Positions 9,410-30,721 of a stretch of DNA of 64,000 nucleotides are shown one piece after another (the first letter of the stretch is position 1; every line of letters starts with the position of its first letter). Below the pieces are notes generated by a model. That model made no database searches. It was given only the letters and a program-made list of their open reading frames with translations, and was not told where the DNA came from. Source of the stretch: an uncultured Verrucomicrobiae bacterium (GTDB lineage Bacteria; Verrucomicrobiota; Verrucomicrobiia; Chthoniobacterales; UBA10450); NCBI GenBank assembly GCA_963741065.1, contig CAVUGV010000018.1, forward strand, positions 44,733 through 108,732, in the 5' to 3' direction. The position numbers were made by a program, and so were the translations under genes.

Positions 9410-11651
9410 GAACGCAGAAGATCGCGCGCGGTTTTTGATTGACGCGTTTGGCCGCGAAAATGTTTTCGTCGAAATTCAGCGGCATTTCATTCGCGGCGAG
9501 GAACGGGTCAATCGCGAACTGATCGATCTAGCGCGTGCACATCGATTGCCGCTTATCGCCACGAACGGCGTGCAATACGCGAAGCCGTACGGACGCGAAG
9601 TGCTGGATGTTTTCACCTGCATTCGCGAACACACGCATCTCGATGCTGCTGGCAAATTGCTGACGCAAAACGCCGAGCGCCATCTGAAGAGCGATCGCGA
9701 AATGCGAGCAATTTTCGCGGATTTGCCGGAAGCAATTGAAAATACATCGCGCCTGGCCGAGCGGCTCACGTTTTCGCTTGAGAATCTCGGTACGAATTTC
9801 CCGAATATCCCGTGCCGGCCGGACACAGCATGGATTCATTTTTGCGCACCATCGTCTGGTTCGGCGCGCAACAACGTTACGCCGCGATCAGCGCAAAAGT
9901 GAAACGCCAGCTCGAGGAAGAACTCGCGCTGATAACGCAAACTCGGGTTCCCCGGCTATTTCCTGATTGTCTGGGACATCGTCAATTTCTGTCGCGAACA
10001 CAACATCATGGTCCAGGGCCGCGGCAGCGCCGCCAACAGCGCAGTTTGTTATTGCCTCGGGATCACGCCGGTTGATCCGGTTGAAAATCATCTCGTCTTC
10101 GAACGATTCCTCAACGAGAGCCGCAAAGGCTGGCCGGATATCGATCTGGATCTTCCCAGCGGCGATCGGCGCGAAGCGGTGATCCAGGAAATTTATCGCC
10201 GCTACGGCAAACACGGCGCGGCGATGACCGCGAACGTGATCAGTTATCGCGGACGCAGCGCCGCGCGCGAGATCGGCAAAGCGCTGAATTTTTCGCCGAG
10301 TATTATCGATCGCTTTTCGCATCTGTTTGCGAACGGCGATTTTCCGCACACGACTCGAATTGGAATCACAGATCGAGCAGGCCGGTTTGCCAAAAATCAT
10401 CCGCGGATGCCGGCATTCATTCGACTGTATCACGCGATCTACGGCTTGCCGCGGCATCTCGGCCAGCATTCCGGCGGCATGATTATCTGTCAGAACAAAC
10501 TGAGCTCATTTGTGCCGCTGGAAAACGCCTCCATGCCGGGCCGCGTCGTCGCGCAATGGGACAAGGACGATTGCGAAGATCTCGGCATCGTGAAAGTCGA
10601 TCTGCTCGGGCTCGGGATGATGTCGGTGATGCAGGATGCGTTTGAGCTTTGCCGTGAACGCGGGCGACCTCTCGATCTGGCTCACATTCCAAAAGATGAC
10701 GCGGCGACTTTCGAGATCATGCAGCACGCCGACACGATCGGCGTTTTTCAAATCGAAAGCCGCGCGCAAATGGCGACGCTGCCGCGGATGAAACCGGAAT
10801 GTTTTTACGACGTCGTGATTGAGGTGGCGATCATTCGCCCGGGGCCAATCCAGGGCGACATGGTGCATCCTTATCTCGCGCGGCGCGCCGGCGAAAAGAG
10901 CCAATCACGTATTTCGACGAACGACTGAAGCCCGTGCTACAGCGCACTCTTGGCGTGCCGTTGTTTCAGGAACAAATGCTCAAGATCGCGATGGTCATGG
11001 CGGATTTTTCCGGCAACGAGGCCGAGGAGTTGCGACGCGCACTGAGTTTTCATCGTTCCGAGGAACGAATGCAAGAAAGTGAGCGTGAAATTGCGCGCGG
11101 CCATGGAGCGAAAAGGCGTCGCGCCGGACAAAATTGAGAAAATCATTCAATCGATCTCGTCGTTTGCGCTTTACGGGTTTCCCGAATCGCACGCGATCAG
11201 TTTCGCCATTCTCGCTTACGGCAGCGCGTATTTGAAAGTGCATCGCGCCGCCGGAATTTTACGCGAGCCTGTTGAACAATCAGCCGATGGGTTTTTACAC
11301 GCCGGCCACGATTGTGAAAGACGCGCAGCGGCATGGGCGTAAAGTGCAAGCCGGTTTGCGTCATGAAGATCGGACTGGCGCTGCAGCGTTGTTGACGACG
11401 ACACAGTTTCGACTGGGGTTTTGCGTCGTGAACGGATTGCGGCAGGAACACGCCGAAGAACTCGTCAGGCAACGGCAAGATCGACAATTTGAGTCGTTGG
11501 AAGATTTCAAGCGGCGAGTTCCTCTGTCGAAAGACGAATTGCGCACACTGGCAGAATTAGGCGCGCTGAATTGTTTTGCCGAACATCGCCGCGCGGCGAT
11601 GTGGAAAGTGGAAGAAACGCTGCATGATGATTTGCTCGATCGCACGACTCC

Positions 11652-11781: not shown

Positions 11782-12253
11782 AGAAAAGAATCGCCCCTCG
11801 CGCCAATGACCCTATCCGAGCGTGTGCGCGCAGATTACGAAACAATGAATCTGACGACCGGACCGCATCCGATGAAACTGTTGCGCGAAAGTTTGCCGAA
11901 TATTTGGCGCGCGATCGATCTTGTTCACGCGCGCCATGGCTCAACCATTCAGATCGCCGGCAACGTGATTTGCCGTCAGCGTCCCGGCACAGCGAAAGGA
12001 TTTGTTTTCATCAGCCTGGAAGACGAGACCGGCGTTTCAAATGCAATTGTCGAGCCAGATCTGTTCGAACAATTTCGGCTCGTCATTACCGAGGAAGCGT
12101 TTCTGCTCATCGAAGGCGAAGTGCAAAATTCAGACAACGTCGATTTTGATCAAAGCGCGCGACATCAGGCCGCTCGCACACCTGCCCGCAATGCTAGCGA
12201 TGCAGGCGGGCGAACAACTCGTCGGAAGCGAGTCGCACGATTTCCACTAATGT

Positions 12254-12310
12254 TGTAGCCGCTTCGCTGTGCGAAGCGTCGCGCTGCCGCCCACTAGGGC
12301 GGCGGCTACA
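12254..12310. terminator. compound hairpin between convergent dnaE2 and gnd (REP-like, probable bidirectional terminator)
   Basis: TGTAGCCGC ... GCGGCTACA outer stem enclosing cgcttcgc-tgtg-cgaagcg and gccgccc-acta-gggcggc hairpins. Confidence 0.5.
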
Positions 12311-12312
12311 GA

Positions 12313-13804
12313 TTACTCACCCGCGTGATGCGGCTGCGGCGTTTTGGGTTCGGTGGGTTTTTCGGCTGGTTTTTGATCGGACTCGATCCATTCGGTGTGA
12401 AAAACGCCGGGCTTATCGATGCGCTCGTAAGTGTGGGCGCCAAAGAAATCGCGTTGCGCCTGCAGGAGATTCGCCGGCAGACGCGCCGAGCGATAACTAT
12501 CGAAGTAAGCCAGCGACGCAGAAAACGCAGGGGCGGCCACGCCATGTTTGATAGCTGTCGATAACACGCAGACGCCAATTGGGCTGCGCTTTCTTGATGG
12601 CTCTCGTGAAATAGCGATCGAGCAGAAGATTGTGCAGTGCGGGGTCGCGCCGATATGCTTCGACGATCCGGTTGAGAAATTTCGCGCGAATGATGCAGCC
12701 GCCTCGCCAGATGGTGGCGATGTCGCTCAGGTTGAGGTTCCAGTTGTATTCGGTGCTTCCAGAACGCAGAAGCTCCATTCCCTGCGCGTAAGACACAATT
12801 TTCGACGCGTAAAGCGCGTCGCGCACTGCATCGACAAGACGCAGTGCGATCGCCTTTAAACTTCTCGAGCTTCGGTTGCGGCAGAATTTTCGACGCAGCC
12901 ACACGCTCTTCTTTTCGCGAGGAGATAACGCGCGCTTCAACGGCGGCGTTTATCGTTGAAATGACGACAGATTGCCGGATCGCGGATTGAAGTGTCCAGA
13001 TGCCGGTTCCTTTTTGGCCGGCTTTGTCGAGGATCATGTCGACCAGCGGCTTGCCGGTCTCGGGATCGATCTTTCGAAAAATTTGCGGATGTGATTTCGA
13101 TCAGGTAACTGTCGAGCTCGCCTTTATTCCATTCTGCAAAGATCTCGGCAAGTTGCGCGGCGTCCATCTCCAACGACGTCTTTGAGAATGGCATAGGCTT
13201 CGCAGATCAATTGGATATCGCCGTACTCGATGCCGTTGTGCACCATCTTGACGTAATGCCCGGCGCCATCCGGTCCCATGTATCGGCAACACGGCTCGCC
13301 ATCCACTTGCGCGGCGATCTTGCGGAAAATCGGCGCGATGATTTCCCATGACTCACGCGATCCTCCCGGCATGAGCGAAGGACCCTTAAGCGCGCCTTCT
13401 TCGCCGCCGGACACGCCCATGCCGACAAAATGAATTCCTTTGCCCTCTAATTCTTTGTCCGCGCCGCTGTGTGTCGGTGAAACAGCGAATTTCCTCCGTC
13501 GATGATGACATCGCCTTTTTCCAGCAGCGGCGCGAGTTGACCGATCACCGCGTCCACCGGCGCGCCGGCTTTCACCATGATCATCGCTATGCGCGGTTTC
13601 TTAAGCGCCGCCGACGAATTCCTCCATCGTGCGCGTTGGTTGAATGTTTTTTCCCTGGCCGCGGCCGGCAGCGAATTTCTCGGTGACTTCCGTGGTGCGA
13701 TTGAACACCGCGACAGAAAATCCCTTCGATTCCATGTTGAGGACGAGATTTTCGCCCATCACACCCAGGCCGATCAGGCCAATATCACATTGATTGGTTG
13801 TCAT
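12313..13804 (-). pseudogene. gnd: 6-phosphogluconate dehydrogenase (decarboxylating). As read: at least 6 frame changes
   Basis: [23 protein letters not shown].., [19 protein letters not shown].., [18 protein letters not shown].., DKAGQKGTG.W.., [10 protein letters not shown].., [14 protein letters not shown].. are all present but spread over six ORF fragments in different frames. Confidence 0.85.
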
Positions 13805-13865
13805 TTTAGTATCTTCTTTTCTGACTACTTCGGAGAAGACACCACTGTAACGAGCATTAGAGCGC

Positions 13866-14303
13866 ATGGCAAATCTCGTTTGCGAAGTTTTAGTGACTGA
13901 AGCGCCGCTTGAGGCGCCGCCGCAAAATCATCATGGCGATGCAGGAGCAACGGTCGATTTTTGGGGAGTGGTGCGGAGACTTGAAGATGGACGCGAAATC
14001 GAAGGGATCGACTATGAAGCGCATCGGGAAATGGCCGAGCATCAGTTGAGACAAATTGCCGAGCAGGCCGTGGAGAAATTTCGGCTTCAACTTGTTATCA
14101 TTCATCACCGAATCGGATTTATTGCCGTTGGGGAACCATCGCTTTTTGTGCGAGTGGCAAGTCCGCATCGCGGCGAAGCATTTCGAGCCAGTCAATGGAT
14201 AGTGGATGAGTTGAAGAAAAAAGTGCCGATTTGGAAGAAGACCACGATTTACAAGAGACAAACAGCCTCGCACGCGGCCTCGCAGGGCAGCGGCTACAGC
14301 AAG
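13866..14303 (+). CDS. moaE: molybdopterin synthase catalytic subunit MoaE (no stop before pgsA as read)
   Basis: ..GATVDFWGVVR..IEGIDYEAHREMAE..VIIHHRIGFIAVGEPSLFVRVASPHRGEAFRASQWIVDELKKKVPIWKK is colinear with E. coli MoaE. Confidence 0.8.
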
Positions 14304-14883
14304 ATGAACTGGGCGAACCGAATTACTTTGGGCCGCCTCGCGCTGACAGTTCTTTTCGTGGTCGCGGTCAATTCTTCCTGGCAATACGCGCGCACTGCCG
14401 CGCTTGTGATTTTTCTGATCGCAGGCCTGACCGATTTTGTCGATGGAGAAATCGCCCGGCGCTACGGGATCATCACGAATTTTGGCAAATTGATGGATCC
14501 GCTCGTGGACAAAATCATGGTGGCGGCGGCGTTCATTTCGCTCGTGCCTCTTAAAGCCGTGCCGGCATGGGCAGCTACGACGGTGGTGGCGCGAGATTTT
14601 TTGATCACCGGACTGCGTCTGATGGCCAGCGCCAAAGGCCGGATTCTTCCAGCGGAAAGTCTCGGTAAACAGAAAACCTCGTGGCAAATCATCACGATTA
14701 TTTTCTTTCTGGCGCTTCTTTCAATAGTCGAACTGCGATACGCGAGTGAAACATCGACATGGTGGGTGCGGGCCTGGAACGAAGCCGGTCCCGTGCTGGT
14801 GTGGATTACCGTGGCACTGACGATTTATTCCGGGTCTTGGCTTTACCTGGCGAAATCGGGAATTGATTGCGCCAGATCAATAG
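14304..14883 (+). CDS. pgsA: CDP-diacylglycerol--glycerol-3-phosphate 3-phosphatidyltransferase (frame break near 14838; as-read ORF runs to 15008)
   Basis: MNWANRITLGR.., CDP-alcohol phosphotransferase motif DFVDGEIAR..G..G..DP..DK. After a 1-nt shift the C-terminus reads TWRNRELIAPDQ-stop (TAG 14881-14883), identical to the duplicate at 17170-17205. Confidence 0.85.
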
Positions 14884-14894
14884 CGGGCAACGGG
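14882..14894 (+). repeat. 13-nt copy of the tRNA-Gly(UCC) 3' end (att-like core)
   Basis: AGCGGGCAACGGG matches 35383-35395 and 16985-16997. Abuts the inferred pgsA stop. Confidence 0.65.
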
Positions 14895-14924
14895 CAGGCG
14901 GCGTTGATAACGTCGATCGTCGGT

Positions 14925-16864
14925 TTAGCGCGCAGCGCGCGCGCGAGCGGCGGCGAGGTTGGCGCGGATGCTTTCGCTGTCGGGCGCGAGGCCTTGCGCG
15001 ATCTCTAATTCGCGAACCGCGTCGGCGTAGCGGCCGAGGTTGAACAGCGAGATGCCGAGATTTTCGTGCGCGGAAACAAGCGCGGGCGCGAGCCGCAGCG
15101 CGGCTTCGTAGTGCGGCAGAGCGTCGGCAAAACGGCCGATGTGGGCGAGAGTGTTGGCCCAGTTGTATTGGGCATCAGGAAGATTCGGGTCCGCGCGCAC
15201 TGCGGACGCGTACTGCGCTAGCGCGTCGTCGGTGCGGCCGAAAATGGTGAGGATGTTGGCAGCGTTGTTATGGGCGAGGGCGAAATCGGGACGAAGGCGG
15301 ATCGCAGCTTCGTAGCACGCGAGCGCCTCGGCATTGCGGCCTTGCTCATGACGCACGTCGCCGAGCCCATAATGCGCGTCGGCGAGTGTGGGGAGTTGTG
15401 CAAGCGCGAGCTCGAATTGCACGGCGGCTTCGTCGAGCCGGCCCGCAGCGGCCAGCGCGACGGCGTAGTTGTGGCGCACCTTGGGGTAGTTCGGCAGCAA
15501 ACGCACCGCAGTCTCGTAGGCAGCGAGCGCTTCGGGGACACGCCCGGCGTCAGAGAGCGCGCTGGCCAGTTCGCCGAACGGGCGCGGGCTTTCGGGCCGC
15601 TTTGCGATGTTGTCCTGCCAAATCGAAATGGCAGAGCGGTAGTCGATGTTGCGCCGCGCGGTCATCGCGCCCAAGGCAATCGCGATTGCAACGAATACGA
15701 CCACGCTGCGACGGCCGAGGACATGCCACACGCCAACGACGATGGCGGCGATGATCGCGGCGAGCGGCAAATACATCCGGTGTTCCGCGACGGTTTGTGT
15801 GGCAAGTGGCAACACGCTCGAAGTCGGCGCGAGCAGCAGAAAAAACCACGCGCCGAGAAAACCCCACGGCGGGCACCGGGCGAGCGCGATGAGCGTGGCA
15901 CCGAAGAGCGCGAGCAGCAGGGCGGCTTGCAGCCAGACCTCAGCGAGGGAACTGGTTGTCGCTATGCCGTAATCGAGCACCAGCGGCGCGGGCCAGAGTG
16001 CGAGTCGAATGTAATGGATGAGCGCACCGCATTGGGTGAGCAGATAGTGCCACGGCGTGATGCCGAGACCGAAACCGGCCGTCGCACCTCGATTGCCCGC
16101 TTGCATCACGAGCCAACCGAGTAACAGCCATGTCGCCGCGAGTCCGGCGTAGAACCATGGCCGCCGACGCAGCGCTTCGCGAAACGTCCCGGCGACAAAA
16201 GTGCGGTCGTGCAGCAGCACGAGCAACGGCGCGGCATACACTACTTCTTTCGTTGCCATGCCGAGCAGGCACATGACAACGGCGAGCGCGTGCCAGCGCA
16301 TGGGCGTAGGCGACTCCGCACCTCGAATCGACGCGTATAGCGTCAATAACAGGCACAACCCGGCAAGCGACTCAGCGCGTTGTGCAATGTAAGTTACCGA
16401 CTCAGTCTGGAGGGGGTGTAACATCCAAAGCGCGGCCAGCGCGAACGCGAGCGGCGTCGCGTCGGCCGCGAATTTCGCAGCGAGCGGTCGGGACCGCAAC
16501 GTCCGGCGCACGACGCCGAACAGCGCCAGCGCAGCCAGCGCGTGGATCGCGAGGTTGAGCACGTGATAGCCGCGGACGTCGGCGCCCCCGACGGCCCAAT
16601 TGAGCGCGAAGGAAAAATTGACGAGCGGCCGGCCATTCGCAGGCTGACCGGTGTGGGGCGGCGCGAGTACCATCAGGGAGCGCGAGCGTGCGGATCGTCG
16701 CGTTTTCGCACGATGGCCGGAAGATCATCGAAAATAAACGGCCCGCGAAAACTATTGGCCCATGCCGCGAGTGCAGCGGCAGTAAGTAGCGCAGCAGCGA
16801 CGAAGATTCCGGCGCGGCTAGAGTTCGGGGCCGGACGCACGATTTTGCCCTTGGCACGCACCAT
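14925..16864 (-). CDS. TPR-repeat membrane protein with TMTC/PMT-like (GT-C fold) N-terminal domain; two frame breaks near 16675-16720
   Basis: N-terminus ..AWANSFRGPFIFDDLPAI.., then about 10 TM segments, then a C-terminal run of TPR units (A..Y..A....P....A..NLG). Visibly more GC-rich than its neighbours. Confidence 0.75.
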
Positions 16865-16983
16865 GAATGACCTTTGTTAGGACCTCTCCTATGAATCGAA
16901 CAGCGAACACTGGCAAAGACTGATTTTTCGTTCTGACTGTTGCCTCCTGGCAGGCGTCTTTTGCTTCGTGTTCATAGATGAAC

Positions 16984-16999
16984 GAGCGGGCAACGGGAA
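16984..16999 (+). repeat. 16-nt copy of the tRNA-Gly(UCC) 3' end plus one flanking nt (att-like core)
   Basis: GAGCGGGCAACGGGAA matches 35382-35397. Fused directly to the pgsA 3' fragment. Confidence 0.65.
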
Positions 17000-17205
17000 A
17001 ACTTCGTGGCAAATCATCACGATTATTTTCTTTCTGGCGTTCCCTGCAAGTGTGGAACTGCGTTACGCCAATGAAACATTTACATGGTGGTACGGCCCTG
17101 GAGCGAAGCCGGTCCCGTGCTGTATGGATTACGATAGTGCTGACGATTTACTCTGGGTTTGGCGTCACCTGGCGCAATCGCGAACTGATCGCGCCCGACC
17201 AATAG
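16996..17205 (+). pseudogene. displaced, decayed duplicate of the pgsA 3' end
   Basis: About 210 nt aligning to 14672-14883. The first 43 nt have 1 mismatch, then roughly 75-80% identity with small indels. Encodes KTSWQIITIIFFLA.. and ..VWITIVLTIYSGFGVTWRNRELIAPDQ-stop in two frames. Confidence 0.75.
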
Positions 17206-19477
17206 CGGCGATCGAGCGTAGCGCATCTGCTGAAGGCCGCGAGAAATGCGAGGGCAGCGAGAATTGAAATCCACTTTCCAAGTGTAAGCACGTCACGGGC
17301 GTACTCGACTCGTAAATGGTGATGACCCGCCAGCAGCGGCACCGCTCGCAAGATGTAATTTGCCGGCAGCAATTTGTAATTTGTCTGAACGCTCCCGGGC
17401 AGGGCGATAGCTCGCCACGATGGTGTGAATGCATCCGTGATCAGCAAGATGGCCGGTTGTTCGGCGTCAGCTTCAATTTCCAGCGCGTCAGTCGAAGCGG
17501 CAACAATTCGCGCCGTGCCGGCGCTTTCGGCTGGCAAGGGTTTCGGTTCCGGTTCGGATTCCAAAATTACTTCGTGCGCGGGGTCAAACGTAGTTGATCG
17601 CAACACGTCGAAGATTGCATTGCGGTCAGCCAGGACACGGTAGCTGGAAACAAGGTGGAGGTGCGACATGGCGGGCTCTGGTGCATCGCCGATTTCCAAT
17701 TCATTTCCGCGTTGCCCCAAAACATAGCGCAGACGCAGCATGGCGAAGAGCGGATCGTAGCGGACGAACTTCACATACGACATCGCCTGGTCGGGATCCC
17801 CGCCCTGGCTCCAAGTCATGAACTCGGCGTAGCGCCGCACCACGGTCGCTTCGTATCCCCACATGTCTTGCGCGCCGATCAACATCGCGCTGTTCGGGTT
17901 CGCGACATTCAGGATGCGGTAATCGCCGGCGTGCTCCTCGAGAAAGCGCTTTTCATCCGGATTCACGATGGTAGCGCTGTCAAACGTGGCGCGCGCGCCG
18001 TGTGCAAAAATAAACATTTCCGCCGCGCCCAAAGCGATCGCGCCAAACAGCGCACGCGGCTCTCGCCTCGCGAAGGCCAGGATGATGCCAAGGAGCGCGC
18101 AAACTCCAGCGGCAAAAAACAGCGACATCGCCGCGAGATGCTGCGATTGGGCAATAAATTCCGTGTCCGCGTAGAGTTGGGGGAACAGGTACGATTGGCC
18201 ACTGGCGCGACTTGCGTTCATTAGTCTCGGCCAGAACCCAGTGCTTGCGGTCCACCATCCGGCGACGCCCAAGGCCGCGGCACATGCGAAAACGGCAGCG
18301 ATAAATGGAGTCTCGATTCTCTTTTGTTGGAACAACCGCTCGAGTCCGCTGGCCGCGAGCAGACAAAGAAACAGCGACGCTAGAAAACTAAACTTCGAAA
18401 TACTGCGGAAGCGATCAAAGCCGGGCACCCAGGTATAAAGAAAATCGAACAACGGTGTATAGGCGCCGACGGCCAATAAAAATGCAACGCAAACAACAAT
18501 CAGCGGGGGCCATTTCGTTCCGCGTTCGCACCGAATCGTCGCGTAGATGGCGAACGCCAGGCCTACTACGCCGATGAAAACTGACGTTTCCCACAGATAC
18601 CAGCGTCCCCAGTATCTCGCTATGTGGCCAAAAAAATCCGGCGCGACCAACGTCGCAAAGTTCTCCGGCGGGAGCGAGAGCATGGAGGCAAATTGAAAAG
18701 GCAGCCTGAAGCCGCGCGTGGTTTCGCGCGTTGTCTGGATGGCGGGCAGCAATTGCACGGCTGCAAGGAGAGCGCCGGCTGGATAGATACTCAGCAACGC
18801 CGCTGCGACTCGCCAATTCCAGTGGCCGATCAATCGCAATGCAGCGTAGAGCCCGGCAATGATTGCAGTGTAAAAGACGTACTGCGGAAATCCTGCCAAC
18901 GTCTGCATGGCGATAGCAAACATCCCAAGCAACGACCAACCCCGAAAGCTTTCGGGGCGCTGAGTTCTGAAAACGGCGTCGATCGAACAAAAGATCAGCG
19001 GCGACCACGTCATTGCGCTCAACTGAGGCAAATGGCCGGCAAAAACGTGGGAAAAAACGCGCCGCAAAACATAACCAGCGTGCCGGCAAAGAAACTGGCC
19101 GGAGCGGAAAGCCCCCGTTGTTTCATCCAAAAAAACATGAACGCGCCAATAGCGAAAACATGCAGCGCCACCGTCCAGTTGATCGCGACAGGGGTGGACA
19201 AAACCAGGAAGAGCCAATTCGGCGGATACAGCAGCGCGCCTTGCATCCCACCGAAATACGGAGCGCCGCTAAAGATATGGGGGTTCCACAACGCGAGATT
19301 TCCTTTGGTCAATTCGCGGAAACCGAATTCGCGCCATGCGAAGTATTGCAAGAACATATCGCTGCCGGGATGTCCAAGCACGCGTGTGCCGCCGGCGAAC
19401 AAAAGATCGGCAAACATGGCCAGCGCCATTGCGAGCAAGAGGATCAGCGAAACGATCGTGGAACGCCGGCTTTCCAT
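17148..19477 (-). CDS. YfhO-family polytopic membrane protein (putative glycosyltransferase); one frame break near 19050
   Basis: N-terminal fragment ..LALWNPHIFSGAPYFGGMQGALLYPPNWLFL.. is YfhO-like and continues into the 689-aa ORF (many TM segments, large C-terminal domain). The last roughly 19 codons are antisense to the pgsA fragment. Confidence 0.7.
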
Positions 19478-19726
19478 CAGGCGGAAATGGTGACCGCCAG
19501 AACTGGAAAAATCAAAGCTCTCGTGAATTTAAAAACGAAATGGATCGCAACATGACTGACCCGGTGCGCCAGCGCGCATAGGCTACGGCGGGAGCGAACT
19601 CAAAATAAGGATTATGCCAGATAGGCAGGCCGTCGCCGCCGTCTCGTTGCCAGATTAAACAGGCCTTGTTCTGCTTCGCAGGATCACGCTAGAATCGCTC
19701 GCTGGTGGGAGGTAGCCAAGGTTTAC

Positions 19727-22700
19727 ATGCCTATGAACGCAAGCGCGCTAATCACCCGATCAGTTCAACTGGCTGTCCGGCCGTTTGTCCTTCTCTGGGC
19801 GTTTCTCAAGAAGATCGCTCTCGCGGTCTTCGGCAGATTGCACTGGAGCCCGCCGCACTGGCTTACACGAAGCCGCGCTGCCACGTCCGATTTTCATCGC
19901 GCGCATCCCCGCATCACGGCGTCCGGGATCGTCACGATTTTTCTGTTGTTGTGCGGCGCAGCCTGGACATTGCATTGGTATCAACATCGGCCCATCCCGC
20001 ACAAAGTTACGGCGACGATCGCCTCTCCGTCGGTTACCAAGCTCGAGAAAGAACTCAAATATCCGCCGCTCTTTGTCCGGTTCAGCGAACCCGCGGCGCG
20101 TCTGGAGGATTTGAAGAAACCATCGCTGTCAGGCGTCCAGGCTCGAACCAAAGATCAATGGCGCGTGGTCATGGAACTCGGACAAGGAACTGGCTTTTCG
20201 GCCAACGCAAGACTGGCCGGCCGATCAAAAATTCAAAATCACTTTCGACAAGAAATTTTTCCCGCCGCAGGTTTTGATGGAGCGCCTTGCCTACGAGTTC
20301 CAGACGCCACCATTCGACGTCGCCATCAAAGAACTTCAGCTCTACCAGGACCCGGCCAATCCGACGCAACGCCAAATCACGGCTACGCTTGAACTCACCC
20401 ATGCGGTTGAGCCCGGCGAGTTAGATCGGCATATCCAGCTGCAGATGATCGGCGGATCGAACGTTTTTCCGCCGTCAGAGTCGTCGCCGCATTTCACGAT
20501 CAGCTATGGGTTGCACAACCGTCTGGCGTATCTGCGCAGCTCGAACGTGACTCTGCCAGAGCGGGAGGATTTCATGAAGCTCTACCTGAGCAAAGGCGTG
20601 CGCACATCGCAGGGCGGCGCGCAAACACGGAACTCCGCAGAGGATAAGGTGCGCATTCCATCACAGGAAACCGCGTTTCAGATCGATTCGATCACCGGCA
20701 CGATCGCGCGAAATAAGAATGGCGAGCCGGAGCAGGTGCTGATCTTAAGTACAACGGCCGATATCAGCAGTAGCGAGCTGGCCAAGGCTGTTCAAATACG
20801 TCTGCTGCCGAAACGCAACGCCGAAACGACTGAAGAAAGCGAAACCGAAGCGACCGGAGAAACCGATTCGCAAAGTCCCGACTCGGAAACGGCTGAGCAA
20901 AGTAACCAAAGCAGCCAGACCGGCGCATCGGGAGACGAGGAGGCGGAGGAGGGGGAAGAACCCGATCAAGCCTCAAAATGGCAGAGTCCTGCCGAGGTGC
21001 CGGACGATGTCCTCGAGCAAGCCAAACAAATCGAATTCACGGTTGTGCCTCTCGGAAAAGGCGCAAGATCGGCAACACGCTTTTAAGATACAGATCGAAT
21101 CGGAGGGCGAGCTTTACGTCCGCGTCCCGAAAGGCGTGCGCGCGCCTGGCGATTACCGATTGGCGGAAGACTACAACGCAGTCGTCGCCGTGCCGCAGTT
21201 GCCGCGCGAAGTGCAGATCGAAGGTCAAGGCGGCTTGCTCGCGTTGAGCGGTGAACGGAAATTGTCCATCCGTTCACGCGCTCTGGCGGCGATCGAATTC
21301 GAAATCGCGCGTGTTGCTACCACTCAGATCAATCACCTCGTCAGCCAGACCCAGGGCAAATTCGAGGACCCTGAATTTCGCGATTCACATTTATTCAATC
21401 AGGAAAATATCTCGCGTATCGGAATCGAGCACCAACCGATTGCGGTCGAAAACAAATGGAAAGCGAATTATTCGGCGTTCGATTTCTCCGAGCATCTTCG
21501 CAAGCCAGCCGATGGCGGAAGCGAGCGCGGGCTTTTCTTTCTGACCGCGCGCGGCTGGGACCCGGCGAAAAAGAAACCAATCAACTCAGCTACGGACAGC
21601 AGATTTCTTCTCATCACGGACATCGGAATTTTAACGAAGAAAAACACCGATGGCAGCAGCGACGTCTTTTTGATGTCGATCAAAAATGGCCAGCCGCTCG
21701 GCGGCGCGACGGTTGACATCCTGGGCAAGAACGGCGTGCCGATCCAGACGGCCAAAACGGCGGCGGATGGTCATTGCACTTTTCCATCCGTTGAAAAATC
21801 CGAGCGCGAAAAATTGCCGGTGGCGTTCGTGGCGCGCAATGGCGACGACGTCGCGTTCATGCCGTTCGCGCGCGAAGACCGCGTCCTGAATTTTTCGCGC
21901 TTTGAAATTGAAGGGGCGGAGAACATCGCCGCCGGAAGGTCTCGACGCGTTCGTTTTCACCGAGCGCGGTGTGTATCGGCCCGGGGACGAAATTCACATC
22001 GGGCTGGTGGTGAAGCAGCGAAGCTGGGGCGGCAATCTCAAAGGCTTGCCCATTGAAACCGAAGTGCATCGATGCGCGCGACCTGCGGGTCCAGACTAAG
22101 AAGCTCACCTTGCCGGAGACCGGGTTCACCGAACTGAGCTATCAAACCGCCAACGAATCGCCGACCGGCCTTTACACCGTCAATGTGTACCTGATCAAAA
22201 ATAACAAGCGCTCGAGTTTGCTCGGTTCCGCCACAGCTCAGGTGAAGGAATTTCTGCCCGACCGCATGAAAATCGAGACGCGGCTGTCCAAAGCTGCCCC
22301 GCGCGGCTGGATTCATCCCAGCGAAATGCATGCTTCCGTTGCCTTGGCCAACCTTTATGGCACGCCCGCAACCGATCGGCGTGTGACCGGCAAACTCGAA
22401 CTCGCACCGGCGGCATTTTCATTTCCGGAATTTCGCGACTTCACTTTTTTCGACCCGCTCTTTGACGAAAACAAAACTCGACAAGAGCAAACGGTCGATC
22501 TCGGCGAAACGAAAACCGACAGCGAAGGCCACGCCGATTTTGACCTGCAACTGGAACGGTTCGCCGACGCGACGTACGCGATGCGATTTATCGCTGAAGG
22601 CTTCGAAGGCGAAGGCGGAAGGAGCGTCATGGGCGACGTCGGCGCGCTGGTCTCTGCTCTGCCTTACGTGATCGGCTACAAAGCCGACGGCGACCTTCGT

Positions 22701-25655
22701 TACATCGACATGAAAAGACCGCGCGCGATCGACCTCGTCGCAGTCGATCCGCAACTCAATCGCATCGCCATCGAAAACGTCACTCTCAACCTCATCGTCC
22801 AGGAATACGTTTCCGTGCTGAAGAAACAGGAGAACGGCAATTACGCTTACGAGTCCGTCCTGAAAGAGCGGCCGGTGAAATCGGAAAAAATCTCGGTCGC
22901 GGCCAGTGGCTATCATTACGCGCTTCCCACCGATGAACCGGGCAATTATGTGATCGAGCTGCGCGACGATCAGAATCGCGCGTTAAGCAAGTTGCGTTTT
23001 TCGGTCGTGGGGCAAGCTGCGCATGGCCGGGGCTCTGGAGAAAAACGCCGAACTGGAAATTAAACTTAACGCCAAAGAGTACAATGCCGGGGATGAAATT
23101 GCAGTAAGCGTGACGGCGCCATACAGCGGCTACGGTCTGATCACGATCGAGCGGGAAAAGGTTTACGGTTACAGTTGGTTTCAAACCAACACCCCCAGCA
23201 GCATCCAGCACATTCATCTGCCTCAGGAGTTTGAGGGCAGCGGCTATATCAATGTCGCCTTTGTGCGGGCGCTCGATTCCAAGGAAATTTTTGTCAGCCC
23301 GCTCAGTTACGGCGTCGTCCCGTTCAAGGCCAATATCGAAAAACGCCGACTGAAGATCGACCTGCAAGCCGCAGCCAAAGCGAAGCCCGGCGAACCGTTG
23401 CACATCGGGTACAAAACCGACCGTCCCAGCAAGATTGTCATTTTCGCGGTCGATCAAGGAATTTTGCAGGTCACTAACTACAAGACGCCTGATCCGCTCG
23501 CTTATCTCTTTCGCAAGTGCGCGCTCGGCGTCGAGACGGCGCAGATTGTCGATCTTATCATTCCGGAATTTTCGTTGCTCCGTTCTCTCTCAGCTTTTGG
23601 CGGCGGCGAGGAAGGGGCACAGAGATTGAATCCGTTCAAGCGCGTCACGGAAAAACCGGTGGTGTTTTGGTCTGGCATCATCGATGCCGACGCCACTGCT
23701 CGTGAAGTTGTCTATGATGTGCCCGACTTTTTCGACGGCACACTCAAGATAATGGCGGTCGGTGTTTCGACCGAAACAACCGGCTCAGCCGAACGGGACG
23801 CACTCATTCGCGGGCCTTTTGTCATTACGCCGAGCGCGCCGGTGTTGACCGCTCCCGGCGACGAATTTGAGGCCGGCGTAACGGTCGCCAATAATGTGGA
23901 AGGTTCCGGCGCGGACGCGGAGATCGAGCTTCGCGTCGAGACGTCTGCGCAATTGTCGGTCTTGGGCGCGTCCACCCAAAAATTGCGAGTCGCCGAAGGG
24001 CGCGAGCAGAGCGCAAAACTGCGCTTCCACGTCAACGACGCGCTCGGCTCTGGCGAGATCAGATTTGTAGCCAGCCGAAATGGGATCGAGACACGCCGGC
24101 GCGCCACCCTGAGCGTGCGGCCACCCGTTCCGTATGCAACCGATGTTCGCAGCGGGAATTTCAAAAAAGGAAACGCGGATGTTCCGATTACGCGTGAGAT
24201 CTATTCCGAGTTCGCCAAACGCGAAGCTGCGGTTGCAGCCGTCCCGCTGGGTTTGGCGCACGGTCTTTACGCTTTTCTCAAGGATTTTCCCCACGGCTGC
24301 AGCGAGCAACTCACCAGCGGCGCATTCTGCCGGCTGCTGCTCTCGGACGAGGCCGATTTCGGGCTCAGTCGCGCAGAGGCAAATACACAGATCGAAAAAG
24401 TCTTTGGGATTCTGCGACGCCGGCAAAACGATCAAGGCGCGTTCGGTTATTGGGCGCCGGAAACTGACGAGAAGATCAGTTTCAATTCTGTTTACGTAAT
24501 GGATTTTCTGAGCGCGGCGAAAACAGCCGGCTTTGCTCCGCCAGCGGACATGTTCGCGAGCGGGTTGCGCTATTTGCAAAAGATGGTCGCGCGCGAACCC
24601 TCGACCCTGGCCGACGCGCGGACCATCGCCTACGGGATTTATGTACCTCACCCGCGAAGGCGTCGTCACCACCAATTACGTCCTTAATCTGCGCGATTAT
24701 CTCGACCAGCATCAGACCGATATATGGCAGAACGATGTCACCGGCGTTTATCTCGCGGGCGCGCTCAAACTTCTGCACAAGGACAAAGAGGCCGAAGATT
24801 TGATCGCCGCCTACAAGATTGGCGAGGCATCGGGCCGAGAGTACGACGACTTTTGCCAACCGCTCGGCGCAAACGCGCAATATATCGCCATACTCGCGCG
24901 CGCCTTTCCGGAGCGGTTGAAGAAAATTTCAGGAGGGGAATTCGAGCAAGTTCTCCAGCCGATCGGGCGCGGCCGAATTCAACACGCTCTCGGCCGCCTA
25001 CGCTGTTTCGGCGCTGAAATCGTACTCGCACATGATCGCGCAAAAGCTGCCCCAGCTCAGCATTATCGAAATTCACCGTGACAAGCGGGAAGTTGGCCTA
25101 ACGAGCGGCTCAAAGTTGCTGCAACGGACGGCATTTTCCAAAGACGCGATTGCGATTCGCTTCAAAAGCACCGGAACGCTCAGCGGTCCCGGCGCATTTT
25201 TCCAGGTCGTCGAAGCGGGATACGATCGACATGCGCCGGGACAACCGGTGACGGCCGGATTGGAAGTTCATCGCGAGTTACTGGACAAAAACGATAAGCC
25301 GGTGACGCAGACAAAACTCGGCGAACCGATTCATGTCCGGCTGTATGCGCGCACTGTGCGCGACCAACCGGTCACCAATGTTGCCATTGTCGATCTTCTT
25401 CCCGGCGGATTCGAAGTTGTCGGGTCATCCTTGCAACCGGGTGTTTCAACAATTTCCGGCGTCGATTATGTCGATGTGCGCGAAGATCGCGCTGTCTTCT
25501 ACGGAACCGTGTCCGGCAGCGCGCTCGAGATCAATTATCAGATCAAATCTACTAATCGCGGCGAGTTCACAGTGCCGCCCATTTTCGCCGAGGCGATGTA
25601 CGAGCGAAACATCAAAGGCCGCGGTATCGGGGGGAAGATCAGCGTGACGGAATAG
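19727..25655 (+). pseudogene. bacterial alpha-2-macroglobulin (YfhM-like) with thioester motif. As read: at least 6 frame changes
   Basis: Seven consecutive ORFs in frames 2,0,1,0,1,2,0 form one roughly 1970-aa MG-domain protein. Thioester GCSEQ at 24295-24309. N-terminal TM anchor. Followed by pbpC as in the classical pair. Confidence 0.8.
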
Positions 25656-25674
25656 CACTTGGAGCAACGCGAAA

Positions 25675-28046
25675 ATGAAAAACCGTGTCATCCCGAACGC
25701 AGTGAGGGACCTCTCAAGAGGACATGGGTTACACAAATTACTGTGTGTGATCCGCGCTTCGTGGGTGATGTCCCTCGCGTTGCTCGGGATGACCGTGTGG
25801 TTCGCCTGGCTGCTACTCCCGAAGCCGCCGTTGCTTGAGGGCATCTCATTTTCCCAATGCGTTCGTGATCGCAACGGAAAACTGCTGCGCGTCACGCTGA
25901 GCGGTGACCAGAAATTCCGCATCTGGACACCGCTGCGCGAGATTTCAACCGCATTGATCGATGCGACGCTGCGATTTGAAGACAAATATTACCGGCATCA
26001 CCCCGGAGTTAACCCGCTGGCATTACTGCGTTCGGCTTTGAATCTGCGACCAGGTCACGCACATAACGGAGCCTCCACCATTACGATGCAACTGGCTCGG
26101 TTGCGTTATCATCTGCGCACCCGCACCCTCAGCGGAAAGTTTGTTCAAATTGTTCGCGCGCTTGAACTGGAGCGGCATTACTCGAAGGACTGAAATTCTT
26201 GAAGCCTACCTCAATCTCGCGCCCTACGGGCGGAACATCGAAGGCGTGGGCGCGGCCAGTCAGATTTATTTTGGCAAGACTGCCGCGCATTTAACCAGGC
26301 CTGAATCAATTTCGCTGAGCGTCATTCCGCAAAGCCCGACCCGACGCGCGTTGTTTGTCGATCAGGATAACGGCGCGCTCAACGCCGCGTTATCGCGATT
26401 CGGCAGGCGAGACGCACGCCTGCCCTACAGCCAGGATGACTATGCTACTCTGGCGCGCGATTTTCGACCGCGCGCTTTAAGCGAACACAAACTTCTCGCC
26501 CCGCACTTTGTTCAGCAGGTGCTGGCGGCCGAGAAAGGCCGCGACGAAATCGTCACCACGCTCGATCTGGCAAAGCAGCAATTAATCGAGCGGCGGATCG
26601 CCGATTATGTTCGAACAAATCGCGGTCGCGGAATTCAGAATGCTGCCGCCCTGCTGGTCGATGCGCGCAACATGGATGTGCTGGCACAGGTCGGCTCGGC
26701 CGATTTCTTCAACGCTGACATACAAGGACAAGTGGACGGAACACGCGCGCCACGTTCACCCGGTTCCACTCTGAAACCGTTCGTCTATGCGCTCGCCCTC
26801 GAGCAGGGATTGATTCATCCATTGTCGATCCTGTCGGATGCGCCCCACAGTTTCGCGGACTACAATCCGGAAAATTTCGATCGCGAATTCGTCGGCCCCA
26901 TCCGCGCCAGTGACGCGCTCGCACGCAGTCGCAATCTTCCAGCGGTCGAACTCGCATCCCAGTTGCGTCATCCCACACTGTATGAATTCCTCCGGGGCGC
27001 GGGCATTAAATTGCCGCGCTCGGAACCGCTTTATGGATTGGCGCTTCCGCTGGGCGGGGCCGAAGTCACAATGGAAGACTTGGTGCGACTTTACGCTGCG
27101 CTGGCCAATAACGGAGAACTGCGTCCGCTTCGCCGCACATCGCGCGAGCTAATCGCGGCGCGGGGCCACTCGATCATGATGCCGGAAGCGGCGTTCCTGA
27201 CCCTGGAGATGCTTAACTTGCCACGACCCGAAATGGGCCGCGCTTATGCGGACCATGCCGCGCCGGTTTTTTGGAAAACGGGGACCTCCCATGGTTTTCG
27301 CGACGCATGGTCAATCGCCGTTTTCAATCACTATGTGCTCGCGGTTTGGATCGGAAATTTTGACGGCCGCGCCAATGGAACTTTTGTCGGGCGAATCGCC
27401 GCCGCTCCTCTCTTGTTTCAAATCATCGATAGTTTGCGCATGAGTTGGCCGGAACCGAACCAGCCGCATCTTCCGCCTCCGGGCGCAAATTTGAAACGTG
27501 TCTCTTTTTGCGCCGTCTCGGGCGATTTACCTGGGCCGTATTGCACTCAACAAGTCGAGGGATGGTTTATTCCCGGAATTTCTCCGATCAAACCCTGCGA
27601 TGTGCATCAGGAAGTGCTCGTCGATGCCATGAGCGGACTCCGCGTGGCGCAGGGATGACGGAACGCGCCAGCTCCGCCGTGAAGTCTATGAATTTTGGCC
27701 GACGGAGTTGTTGTCGATCTTTCGCCGGGCTGGAGTGCCGAGAAAATTGCCGCCGCCATTTTTGCCCGGAACGACTGCGGAATTCGTCGCGCGCAGTGGA
27801 AATGCGCCGCGAATCGTTTCGCCACCTGATGGGCAAAAGATTTTGCCGGCACCGGCCGGCGCAATACCCTTGCAAGCCAGGGCGGACGCTGATGTGCGCG
27901 AGATTTACTGGTTCGCGGGCAAAACCTTTATCGGCAGAGCCCCGCCGCAGGAAGTAATTTCATGGAAGGCGTCGGCAGGCCGATACGAATTGATCGCCTT
28001 GGACGACCATGGCCGCTCGGGCTCATCCGCGATTACGGTGCAATAG
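25675..28046 (+). CDS. pbpC: penicillin-binding protein 1C (transglycosylase/transpeptidase); two frame breaks (about 26150-26190, about 27655-27710); likely start ATG 25768
   Basis: GT51 motifs RFEDKYYRHHPGVNP, GASTITMQLARL, ILEAYLNLAPYG. Transpeptidase motifs STLKP, KTGTS. C-terminal PbpC-type domain (..IYWFAGKTFIG..). TM helix MSLALLGMTVWFAWLLL. Confidence 0.85.
25687..25793. repeat. family-B inverted-repeat element, copy B2, overlapping the pbpC start
   Basis: gtcatcccgaacgcagtgagggacctc ... gatgtccctcgcgttgctcgggatgac. The right arm contains ATG 25768 and the first TM codons of PbpC. Confidence 0.8.
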
Positions 28047-28171
28047 GAACACACATTTCAACGTCACCACTAACCTGAATACTGATCTCAAATTGAAGGA
28101 AGAAATCGGCCACATGATGGACTCGGTGCACCGGATGTCAGAGATAGAAGTCGAAAAGATAGAGAAGGAAT

Positions 28172-28627
28172 GTGAGAACATCGGAACTGAATTCATTCGC
28201 GTCTGACCGGGTGATTCGGAGGTGCGCTTGGTTAGCCGGAATTTTGGTTCTGTTGTTCTTTCCAAACGCTTTTGCACAGAGCGAGTTTTCGACATTTTGG
28301 AAAAAATTTGGATCCGCGGTAATCACTGGCGATAAAGCAACAGTTGCGGAGATGGCAAAATTCCCACTGTCGATGCCTGCCTTTCAAAAGGCCGTAAAGA
28401 ACAGGGCCGATTTTTTGCGCCGTTATAATGAAATTTTTAGAGGCGAGGCCAATGCCGCCCAATGTTTTGCAACCGCCGAACCGCGAAAAGAATCCGACCG
28501 GCGGTGTGAGATCTATTGTCCTTTTAAAGAAACTCCGGGCGACCGCGAGAACGCACCAATTCGCTTCGAGTTCGAATTGACCAAAAGCGGCTGGAAATTT
28601 GCCGGTCTCGACAACATTAATGAATGA
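28172..28627 (+). CDS. hypothetical secreted protein
   Basis: 151-aa ORF with a signal-like segment WLAGILVLLFFPNAFAQ. No family recognised. Start uncertain. Confidence 0.45.
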   Translation: MRTSELNSFASDRVIRRCAWLAGILVLLFFPNAFAQSEFSTFWKKFGSAVITGDKATVAEMAKFPLSMPAFQKAVKNRADFLRRYNEIFRGEANAAQCFATAEPRKESDRRCEIYCPFKETPGDRENAPIRFEFELTKSGWKFAGLDNINE

Positions 28628-28746
28628 CGCGCATTAACGCCAAAGATTCAGACACGAATTTGAAACTCGCTCGCTCCCGCGCTGCTCCGGGCTCGATCCG
28701 CTTCGGAACGATCCGCATTTCCAGAACGAGGTGTAAAAAACTGCGA

Positions 28747-29055: not shown

Positions 29056-29084
29056 AATTCTCTCGTTCTCTTTCTGGCAAGCAT

Positions 29085-29994: not shown

Positions 29995-30062
29995 GCCAAT
30001 CGTGTTTGGCATTTTGAGCCAAACAAAAAGTCCGCCCCCGCGGCCACGTGAGCAGAAAAATT

Positions 30063-30677: not shown

Positions 30678-30721
30678 GATTTTTGTTCGTTCGTTTAACT
30701 TTTACTTTCTAAATTTGTCAT

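Follow-up and report, generated by a model that had tools for sequence, protein, structure and literature searches.

The window analyzed here is a 64-kb stretch of soil DNA from a Candidatus Udaeobacter-like bacterium (Verrucomicrobiota) in which the 3′ end of the phosphatidyltransferase gene pgsA is present twice. The first of these ends (copy 1, or F1) belongs to the functional gene, and the second (copy 2, or F2) is contiguous with a gene for a YfhO-like membrane protein, here called yfhO. Between them lies a cassette with a single gene for a membrane protein with tetratricopeptide repeats (the TPR gene), and a short direct repeat stands on either side of the cassette (R1 and R2; Table 1). 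The original prediction, made from the letters of the sequence, had read this arrangement as the capture of a foreign gene at, or next to, the 3′ end of pgsA. As shown below, the repeats are the 3′ end of a tRNA-Gly(TCC) gene, which is the integration target of the region, and the duplication of the pgsA end appears to be an event of its own.

For comparison, we collected 80 pgsA loci by a protein-guided scan, nearly all of them labelled Udaeobacter, Chthoniobacterales or Verrucomicrobiota, and cite them by number (L002 and so on). The closest relative, L084, is an Illumina metagenome-assembled genome of Candidatus Udaeobacter (SMAG, assembled with MEGAHIT) that is 92-97% identical to the window over the alignment of 12306-26868. 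L093/L081 come from MFD, L082 and L083 from JGI, and L168 from Logan (SRR21358214_32); L091 is a long-read assembly, prone to frameshifts. Upstream, the order 6PGD-moaE-pgsA is kept in all pgsA loci, whereas the downstream order is not.

Scars of a tRNA-Gly(TCC) gene and an integration hotspot

The 13-nucleotide (nt) sequence AGCGGGCAACGGG is exact at 14882-14894 and 16985-16997, as had been predicted, and short repeats of this kind suggest site-specific insertion. It is also exact at 32230 and 35382 and has one mismatch at 29940, all in the same orientation, where by our estimate ∼0.002 exact matches are expected by chance per extra copy in 64 kb. The occurrence at 35382 belongs to the sole tRNA gene that ARAGORN found in the window, a tRNA-Gly(TCC) convergent with pgsA, whose plus strand starts AGCGGGCAACGGGAATCGAACCC. 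The 13-nt repeats are the 3′ end of this tRNA gene. The scars differ in length, with 13 nt at 14882 (14/15 positions of the longer form), 15 nt at 16985, 23 nt at 32230 and a degenerate scar at 29940. On the tRNA, the 15-nt version runs from within the T-loop through the T-stem and the acceptor stem to the discriminator base. R1 has exactly the overlap with the pgsA stop that the intact tRNA has in relatives, and a whole tRNA occupies the R1 position in L004, L010, L011, L014, L029-L031 and L033. An Rfam scan of 13.5-20 kb at E values up to 1 returned no RNA families, but short tRNA fragments escape such a scan.

We surveyed the position of tRNA-Gly(TCC) in the 78 usable pgsA loci of the 80. 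The tRNA overlaps the pgsA stop (by ∼2 nt) in 12 loci, lies 0.1-2 kb from it in 13, 2-6 kb in another 13 and more than 6 kb in 15, and in the other 25 it is beyond the available sequence. The gene order from pgsA to the tRNA is not fixed in the relatives: the inserts range from 0.1 to more than 9 kb (20.5 kb in the window) and are unrelated in content, with open reading frames (ORFs) that form 77 clusters, mostly singletons. At 10 loci a tRNA scar lies exactly at the pgsA stop and the tRNA itself is displaced. By the length of their identity to the tRNA and the sequence that follows, the scars fall into classes of 27 nt, of 23 nt (followed by a conserved element end), of 15 nt (that of the TPR cassette) and others; therefore several element families have used the site. 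All other islands among the 78 loci begin at the stop codon or at a tRNA scar, and only a single type of junction lies inside pgsA, common to its bearers by descent. Past the tRNA, the flank (fabF and an IMPDH-like gene) is syntenic in L085, L086, L091 and L164. The integration target is thus tRNA-Gly(TCC), not the pgsA 3′ end that had been proposed.

The window has the organization of an additive island, with an intact tRNA at 35382-35453, an array (14884-35381) on its 3′ side, direct repeats of the tRNA 3′ end, and empty sites and variable content in relatives. Ancestrally, pgsA and a convergent tRNA-Gly(TCC) would have overlapped by 2 nt, with the tRNA 3′ end as the attachment (att) site; every integration would then leave the old tRNA 3′ end behind as a short repeat and move earlier arrivals toward pgsA. 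Taken together, these data make a tRNA hotspot the framework that very probably applies to the locus. L019 equals the window minus 16999-32244, the 15.2-kb segment between two tRNA scars, and in L019 the 32230 scar with its following sequence comes directly after the TPR cassette; by this comparison the segment may represent one excisable unit. A candidate for the enzyme that serves the hotspot is the tyrosine recombinase of L008 (15702-16847, 381 aa, PF00589 with 74 bits), whose start lies 140 nt from a 27-nt tRNA-Gly scar. A regular expression for tyrosine-recombinase motifs, run over all loci, gave zero matches; it was too strict and was replaced by ORF clustering with Pfam on ten candidates, which yielded the L008 gene alone.

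The 20.5-kb array of the window contains the TPR gene, yfhO, genes for alpha-2-macroglobulin and PbpC, and genes for small RHH proteins, a DUF998 protein and a response regulator. Alpha-2-macroglobulin (1977 aa when intact, in L084) followed by pbpC (PBP1c) occupies 19727-27658. The two are a well-known gene pair, which is absent from L003, L085, L091 and L164 and hence accessory here. A 451-aa ORF at 33242-34597 had zero Pfam matches. Island ends in which the 23-nt scar precedes a conserved stretch, ACTTTCGAA.TTTCGCG...TTGCGCAATTYCGCCACAAAYATGCGCTAG, are present in the window (32230-32380), in L019 (6677-6830) and in L005, L008, L027, L042, L045, L050 and L081; such an end probably represents the att-proximal arm of a single element family with a wide distribution in Udaeobacter.

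Table 1. Features between moaE and the tRNA-Gly(TCC) gene, in window positions
Feature	Position	Strand	Basis or remark
moaE	13866-	+	160 aa in L019 and L162
pgsA, functional copy (CDP-diacylglycerol-glycerol-3-phosphate 3-phosphatidyltransferase)	14304-14883	+	Pfam CDP-OH_P_transf, E 8e-37
Copy 1 (F1), 3′ 212 nt of functional pgsA	14672-14883	+	Alignment
R1, tRNA-Gly(TCC) 3′-end scar, left edge of TPR cassette	14882-14896	+	13 nt exact, 14/15
TPR cassette	14897-16984	-	TPR Pfam matches; same ends in relatives
TPR gene within cassette	14925-16864	-	645-aa protein when intact
R2, 15-nt tRNA-Gly 3′-end fragment AGCGGGCAACGGGAA	16985-16999	+	Ends in T-loop
Copy 2 (F2), relic of pgsA 3′ end, contiguous with yfhO	16997-17205	+	Alignment, pN/pS
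YfhO-like membrane protein gene	17148-19217	-	Pfam YfhO, E 7.6e-4, below cutoff
Region x, conserved flank upstream of yfhO	19218-19547	.	Always moves with yfhO; right end is a synteny breakpoint
Degenerate tRNA-Gly 3′-end scar	29940-29953	+	Same junction in L006
23-nt tRNA-Gly 3′-end scar	32230-32252	+	Followed by conserved element end (ACTTTCGAA.TTTCGCG type)
Intact tRNA-Gly(TCC) gene	35382-35453	-	ARAGORN

The TPR cassette and its protein

The cassette is 2.1 kb long and consists of one gene with a 24-nt tail and a 110-nt leader. Its ends are constant: on the left the tRNA scar is followed by GGCGGCGTTGA..., and on the right ...TGTTCATAGRTGAATG is followed by the tRNA 3′ end. Cassettes with these ends occur in L019, L084-L087, L091, L093 and L162-L166, and the cassette is spread over about ten Udaeobacter lineages in at least four arrangements. 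With T for the cassette, the order is pgsA-T-tRNA in L086 and pgsA-yfhO-x-(w)-T-tRNA in L085, L091 and L163-L166, where x and w are segments next to yfhO. It is pgsA-F1-R1-T-R2-F2-yfhO... in the window, L084, L093/L081, L082 and L083; in L019 and L162, pgsA and T are followed by a 23-nt scar and another element. L088, L090 and L167 carry the TPR gene alone, without the cassette flanks, at an unrelated locus.

The segment between the copies had been called compositionally odd, and windowed GC content and GC content at third codon positions (GC3) bear this out. The cassette has 62-68% GC in 400-nt windows versus 53-60% around it, and the segment is the most GC-rich 2 kb of the window (63.6% versus 52-60% elsewhere). 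The TPR ORF has 65.6% GC and a GC3 of 0.76, and the other genes 56% and ∼0.62. In every Udaeobacter genome the TPR gene has a GC content of 62-66% and a GC3 of 0.70-0.76 (0.63 in L091) against a background of ∼55%. The architecture of the window recurs in L084, L093, L082 and L083, which shows only that the event predates the window lineage, and the composition there is not uniform.

The gene had been described as foreign. Many Udaeobacter, however, have the TPR gene at 85-96% identity, and beyond the genus its nearest relatives belong to Opitutae (66% amino-acid identity, genomes of 63-66% GC) and other Verrucomicrobia; the gene family is therefore old and verrucomicrobial, and the gene was not acquired recently from another phylum. 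Among Udaeobacter, the cassette shows 95.3% identity to the window in L019 and 93.5% in L086, where four core blocks are 74-86% identical, and by this incongruence it has moved horizontally between clades of the genus. In L085 and L091, cassette and core alike are ∼90-91% identical to the window.

The sole gene of the cassette is neither a recombinase nor a transfer gene. A 15-nt tRNA-derived repeat stands on both sides in the window, L019 and L084, and in L085, L086 and L091 the right-hand repeat is the tRNA itself. A single-gene, integrase-less, att-flanked unit fits the definition of a cis-mobilizable element (CIME) that takes part in accretion (PMC5704250), and we propose that the TPR cassette is of this type, mobilization in cis being read solely from the phylogenetic incongruence. 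The junction of a circular form of the cassette would read ...GATGAATGAGCGGGCAACGGGAAGGCGGCGTTGA....

The protein itself, 645 aa in L019 and L084, where the gene is intact, had been described as TMTC-like. Its C-terminal third is an array of about seven TPRs that matches multiple TPR families in Pfam (E down to 1e-30), and this part of the structural model (pLDDT >90) matches the TPR domain of OGT. Residues 1-402 had zero Pfam matches at E values up to 5, PMT_2 and DUF1736 included, and a PDB sequence search with the membrane domain (the N-terminal ∼400 residues) also gave zero matches. A database search found thousands of full-length homologues, and some of them, 42-52% identical, have a PF13231 (PMT_2) match and bear the JGI name protein O-mannosyl-transferase. 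A fold search with the full-length protein gave TPR proteins alone, and a model of the N-terminal part was made instead. For this AlphaFold model (mean pLDDT 72.7), the top 18 Foldseek matches in the PDB were all GT-C enzymes, with TM-scores of 0.38-0.52; the GT-C fold matches comprised Pmt4, AftB, EmbA/B, STT3, ArnT, PglB and PimE. Across 28 homologues down to 47% identity, F43, D46, I51 and N54 never vary, and at least 90% of the sequences have D47. The Asp-Asp pair D46-D47 lies just past the first helix, as an acidic motif in the first extracytoplasmic loop. The protein thus resembles the eukaryotic TMTC/PMT O-mannosyltransferases in its predicted GT-C-fold N-terminal domain, its Asp-Asp pair and its C-terminal TPR array, but differs from them in having no PMT_2/DUF1736 match in Pfam and no sequence match in the PDB, and the TM-scores are 0.4-0.5. 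As far as the model goes, TMTC-like seems a fair term for the architecture and the fold, but not for family membership or activity.

The two pgsA ends and their junction with the tRNA

The duplication of the pgsA 3′ end was confirmed by alignment. The copies are 86% identical with three single-base indels; identity is 96% over the first ∼45 nt, 81% in the middle part and 80% over the last 57 nt. The last 12 codons encode TWRNRELIAPDQ-stop in both copies, and the six sites at which they differ are all synonymous (6/6; p ∼1.5e-4 for random changes), in agreement with the original prediction. The true stop of pgsA is the TAG at 14881-14883: the L019 orthologue scores 144 bits against TIGR00560 pgsA (cutoff 109), and the corrected 192-aa PgsA of the window is matched end to end by relatives. 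The ratio of nonsynonymous to synonymous differences (pN/pS) is 0.16-0.17 for copy 1 and for single-copy pgsA genes, and 0.50 for copy 2 in relatives, in the part upstream of the overlap with yfhO. In short-read relatives copy 2 has no indels; it has in-frame stops in L082 and L083, and its stop codon is mutated in L084 and L082. Copy 2 is a relic as regards pgsA, under relaxed constraint, and its predicted lack of function as pgsA stands.

The indels are another matter. Over 12306-26868 the window differs from L084 by ∼24 single-base indels, mostly extra bases in the window and not in homopolymers, or about one per 600 nt. Each of the following is an intact ORF in L084 but is broken in the window by such indels: dnaE, a 6PGD-like gene, moaE/pgsA, the TPR gene (1-nt insertions at 16673 and 16709), both pgsA copies, the gene for alpha-2-macroglobulin, and pbpC. 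The genes of L019 are intact too. In copy 1, the terminal frame is shifted relative to the body of pgsA by an additional C at 14836, which L084, L093 and all other relatives lack, and as written the pgsA ORF runs on to 15008. A further private insertion at 14241 removes the moaE stop and merges moaE and pgsA into one 380-aa ORF (13866-15008); in L019 and L162, moaE (160 aa) and pgsA (192 aa) are separate and overlap by ATGA. The indels of copy 2 at 17089 and 17122 are also private to the window, and the frameshifts of both copies are absent from L084, L093, L082, L083 and all single-copy relatives. Judged by these comparisons, sequence errors or changes private to the window account for the indels better than pseudogene decay does.

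The tail of copy 2 is 88-96% identical to L002, L003 and L091, and the tail of copy 1 is 75-86% identical to the same genomes, from which it differs almost only at synonymous sites (pS 0.63 vs 0.21). A donor of copy 1 was sought among the 80 pgsA loci, where the best match to its tail was only 87.5% identical. The pgsA tails of L019 and L086 are unlike copy 1 (71-80%) despite a cassette identity of 93-95%; therefore the cassette and the pgsA copy were not derived together from that clade. The first 45 nt are 93-100% identical across the sequences of the subclade, with the exception of the more divergent L084 copies (82-93%). Since this near-identity is common to the whole subclade, it is uninformative about a crossover, and we rejected the idea of a crossover or att core in these 45 nt, where single-copy relatives are equally identical.

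Three further observations concern the pgsA sequences. In L084 the copies (9659-9868 and 11983-12191) are 92% identical in the middle part, as against 81% in the window, and in both the duplicated segment begins with the same private ACG codon, which suggests gene conversion between the copies in the L084 lineage. The 5′ part of pgsA (14304-14671) is a mosaic that places the window and L084 with L003 (92%) and L093 with L002 and L091 (90-91%); moaE instead groups the window, L084 and L093 together. This pattern suggests frequent homologous exchange in the left flank of the hotspot. Finally, a hairpin (TCGTGGCAAATCATCACGA) followed by a T-run lies just past the duplication boundary in both copies (14679-14706 and 17004-17031). 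This stretch is 93-100% conserved at the nucleotide level in the subclade, above the conservation of adjoining codons, and was the sole result of a promoter and terminator scan, in the conserved pgsA core.

The name YfhO is a weak label (PF09586 at 18.4 bits, with a gathering cutoff of 28.5), and an exact-protein look-up for the window YfhO returned zero records. The ORF ends inside copy 2, as had been noted: the last 58 nt of copy 2 code for the C-terminus of YfhO on the opposite strand, and the last 19 codons of yfhO are antisense to the last 19 codons of pgsA. The same overlap exists in the single-copy genomes L002 and L091, and the YfhO C-terminus ...YWSGAISSRLRQVKPSPE, followed by the stop, is common to L002, L091 and the copy-2 genomes. 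The overlap is therefore older than the duplication; it is ancestral, and not owed to an insertion that made yfhO terminate in a displaced fragment. With a 58-nt overlap, separating pgsA from yfhO must duplicate at least 58 nt if both genes are to stay whole. Seen in this way, the overlap would be a simple reason why the duplicated product survived: copy 1 completes pgsA, and copy 2 supplies the last 19 codons of yfhO and otherwise drifts. Dual coding with yfhO as the sole cause of the conservation of the copy-2 tail was also considered, but is weakened by L003, which has the same tail without the overlap. Behind yfhO-x, some relatives carry segment w (1.6 kb) with an ORF for a membrane protein of ∼511-517 aa (L081 3456-5035, L003 3421-4995, L164 7445-9020); it is missing from the window and L084. 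The cargo of the hotspot seems to be enriched in large membrane proteins (TPR/GT-C, the weakly classified YfhO-like protein and that of w).

At the junction of R2 with copy 2, the sequence ...AGCGGGCAACGGGAA is joined to AACTTCGTGG..., and GAA (16997-16999) is common to both sides as a 3-nt microhomology. The join connects tRNA nt 15, in the T-loop, to a site 210 nt inside pgsA (GGTAAACAGAAAACYTCGTGG). To its left, pgsA-F1-R1-T-R2 is collinear up to tRNA nt 15 with the genomes in which the cassette directly follows pgsA (L086, L019, L162). To its right, F2-yfhO-x is collinear with the genomes in which yfhO abuts pgsA (L002, L091, L085 and L164). In a pattern search, three more contigs (one from a genome, two from metagenomes) had the junction, at 91-94% identity; the junction genomes are L081/L093, L082, L083 and, in degenerate form, L084. 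The original prediction had assumed one capture event for cassette and duplication. Because the same cassette and tRNA scars occur without a pgsA duplication in L019, L086, L085, L091 and L163-L166, the two are separate events, and the duplication itself appears, from its distribution, to be one old, inherited event.

The tRNA is broken at the junction after the same 15 nt that make up the TPR cassette's own repeat, which favors an att-core reaction, with pgsA as the secondary site, over a random join. The T-loop is a classical integrase crossover sublocation, described for ssrA islands as well (PMC3146451). We lean slightly toward an att-core reaction, and with it an integrase, as the maker of the junction. 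A second, independent case of a pgsA end that travels with yfhO is found in L168 (5480-9930), where a block of TPR gene-x-yfhO-partial pgsA adjoins a paralogous TPR gene at a non-pgsA locus, with yfhO still joined to 142 nt or more from the 3′ end of a different pgsA.

As a whole, the locus is probably best explained as a tRNA island with a hitchhiked pgsA fragment. A yfhO island would have been cut imprecisely from a pgsA-yfhO genome and would have taken the adjoining pgsA 3′ end along; one of the cuts would have fallen within pgsA, since the scar originally on the left had been lost by erosion beneath the reading frame of yfhO. The excised island would then have entered the att site of tRNA-Gly, on the right-hand side of a TPR cassette already in place. 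The junction of the circular island would read ...AGCGGGCAACGGGAAAACTTCGTGG..., without the TPR leader beside it. This path is supported by the copy-1/R1 junction, which resembles the native pgsA/tRNA overlap, and by the star-like identities of yfhO, in which the window is 91.6-91.7% identical to L002/L091 and 92-93% identical within the duplicated clade; the corresponding identities for moaE are 82% and 90%. R2 and a 23-nt scar enclose the yfhO island (F2-yfhO-x-w) of L093. That it was the yfhO side that carried the pgsA fragment in, in this direction and order, we suggest tentatively. In the mirror path, which we regard as on the unlikely side, a circle with the pgsA end and the TPR gene would have integrated by homologous recombination into a pgsA-yfhO genome.

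Several observations weigh against a hitchhiked fragment carried in by a yfhO island. No integrase domain was found in the scanned ORFs of at least 90 aa in 14.9-35.4 kb, although frameshift errors could hide one, and among ∼50 related islands an integrase came from L008 alone. The pgsA site and the attachment core are alike at only ∼7-10 of 15 positions, as judged by eye, which leaves room for a plain illegitimate join. The closest core relatives (L002, L003, L091 and L085) all have yfhO beside pgsA, so that the more parsimonious course is a pgsA-yfhO genome that received the TPR side. Both the cassette and yfhO have diverged from L085/L091 (90-92%) about as much as the core genes; neither thus stands out as clearly foreign in the subclade, and the rearrangement may have been intragenomic. 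F1 and F2 are also too short for a reliable tree, and the L084 copies were possibly homogenized by gene conversion. Purely intragenomic routes from pgsA-yfhO-TPR-tRNA to the order of the window, by a tandem duplication with later deletions or by removal and reinsertion of the cassette, were considered and are not preferred, since they pass through a lethal intermediate with truncated pgsA or take at least three steps.

The explanation nearest to the original prediction is an element that targets the pgsA 3′ end, brings copy 1 and the TPR gene with it and displaces the host end as copy 2, the 13-nt repeats being a target duplication. An F1-cargo-F2 order with near-identical first 45 nt is indeed the expected product of integration at a gene 3′ end, copy 2 is relaxed as pgsA, L002 with yfhO directly after pgsA resembles an empty site, and the nearest core relatives are all pgsA-yfhO. 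Yet the 13-mers are copies of the 3′ end of tRNA-Gly that are found repeatedly along the 20-kb array, and the same cassette stands with its repeats at the tRNA, without a pgsA duplication, in at least 8 assemblies. None of the other islands at the 78 loci starts inside pgsA, the identity of the first 45 nt is subclade-wide and hence no mark of an att core, and the scanned array of the window is without an integrase. Neither recurrent insertion of different cargos at one pgsA position nor an attachment core derived from pgsA was observed. We consider targeting of pgsA improbable in this form; a weaker form survives as the mirror path. A formation without any integrase, by homologous recombination on one side (in pgsA/moaE or the TPR gene) and an illegitimate join at GAA or a template switch on the other, is unlikely but has more in its favor. 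The microhomology is just 3 nt, of the two ends of the L168 block, that inside the TPR gene is homologous and that inside pgsA a non-homologous break, the mosaic affinities of the pgsA 5′ part speak of frequent homologous exchange in the flank, and homology-facilitated illegitimate recombination is an established route (term in PMC8116780 and PMC6382021). Its difficulty is that the tRNA break matches the 15-nt repeat of the cassette, as expected for an att core but a coincidence for a random join, and that the 15.2 kb between R2 and the 32230 scar form one unit that is absent in L019. The circular-junction sequence that bears on this choice is ...AGCGGGCAACGGGAAAACTTCG..., with putative cleavage at GGGAA/T.

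That the pgsA end and its scar (223 nt) were duplicated in tandem in situ, diverged and later received the TPR gene with a 13-nt target-site duplication is very improbable. The sequence left of copy 2 equals the sequence right of copy 1, as at a tandem-duplication junction, but the 13-mers are exact where the copies differ by 14-20%, and the cassette has the same flanking repeats at an intact tRNA elsewhere. It also lacks a transposase and terminal inverted repeats, and the copy-2 tail matches the yfhO-linked pgsA of other genomes. An assembly artefact, either a chimeric strain join or an expanded repeat, might be suspected from the many single-base errors of the window and from the related contig L162, which ends exactly inside R2. 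Its probability is practically negligible: the same junction and order are present in five independent assemblies from different projects and technologies, at 91-97% identity, and a de Bruijn mis-join would need more than the 3 nt by which the two sides of the junction overlap. The locus might also be an array of small tRNA-bounded (15-27-nt) cassettes, often single-gene and integrase-less, that are shuffled, exchanged and reordered in trans by one or a few integrases encoded elsewhere, in an integron-like manner, which we consider decidedly unlikely. If this were so, the pgsA fragment on the att core would be direct sequence evidence for the capture of a flanking gene by imprecise excision, which has so far only been hypothesized, for tRNA islands of streamlined free-living bacteria.

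Significance and relation to known systems

Candidatus Udaeobacter is among the most abundant soil bacteria, but it is uncultured and its gene exchange is little known. The locus provides one concrete, recurrent route of gene flow, in which one tRNA-Gly by pgsA gathers and swaps small cargo cassettes across species. Several of the cargos are membrane proteins of the envelope or glycosylation type (TPR/GT-C, YfhO-like, and alpha-2-macroglobulin with PbpC). The duplicated pgsA end may be seen as a molecular fossil of an imprecise event, and overlapping convergent genes as a limit on which rearrangements survive. For annotation, two cautions follow: the duplication of a gene 3′ end with short direct repeats may be a tRNA attachment scar, and the indels of one error-prone assembly should not be taken as pseudogene decay.

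The locus belongs to a known class, that of tRNA-anchored additive islands with tandem accretion and decayed, integrase-less cassettes. Two aspects are noteworthy within this class: a core-gene fragment fused to an att core would be tangible evidence of the capture of flanking DNA, and the overlap of convergent genes would explain the retention of the duplicate. In the CIMEs of the ICESt1 type, accretion takes place at attachment sites in gene 3′ ends, and decayed members have lost the integrase and transfer genes but kept attL and attR (PMC5704250). The likeness lies in the tandem elements at the 3′ end of one gene, each bounded by direct repeats of that end. The cassettes here, in contrast, are 0.5-3 kb and often single-gene, the window has no functional partner element, and the host is an uncultured soil Verrucomicrobium. 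The ssrA islands of Dehalococcoides are likewise tandem, with ∼20-bp direct repeats of the 3′ end and an insertion point in the T-loop, and about half of them lack an integration module and have been suggested to be CIMEs (PMC3146451). Their target is a tmRNA and their enzyme a serine recombinase (DsiB), whereas here the target is tRNA-Gly(TCC) and the sole integrase nearby is the tyrosine recombinase of L008.

For the tRNA islands that tycheposons form in Prochlorococcus, imprecise excision has been proposed as the means by which host DNA from the flanks is picked up (bioRxiv 10.1101/2020.12.28.424599). These islands share with the present locus a fixed hotspot by a tRNA in a small-genome, free-living bacterium, scattered partial tRNAs, mostly integrase-free cargo, and the displacement of older elements from the tRNA by newer ones. 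The model drawn up for them predicts a pgsA fragment attached to yfhO, as is found here. We do not claim membership in the tycheposons, whose hallmark genes (the tyrosine recombinase lineage and the replication module) were not looked for and with which the integrase family of L008 was not compared. In specialized transduction (lambda gal/bio), the aberrant excision of a prophage carries away a piece of the gene beside the attachment site. Together with homology-facilitated illegitimate recombination, it resembles the present case in that a piece of an adjoining gene is carried, ends are duplicated and the join has a homology of a few bases; a phage is absent here, and the likeness would be one of mechanism only.

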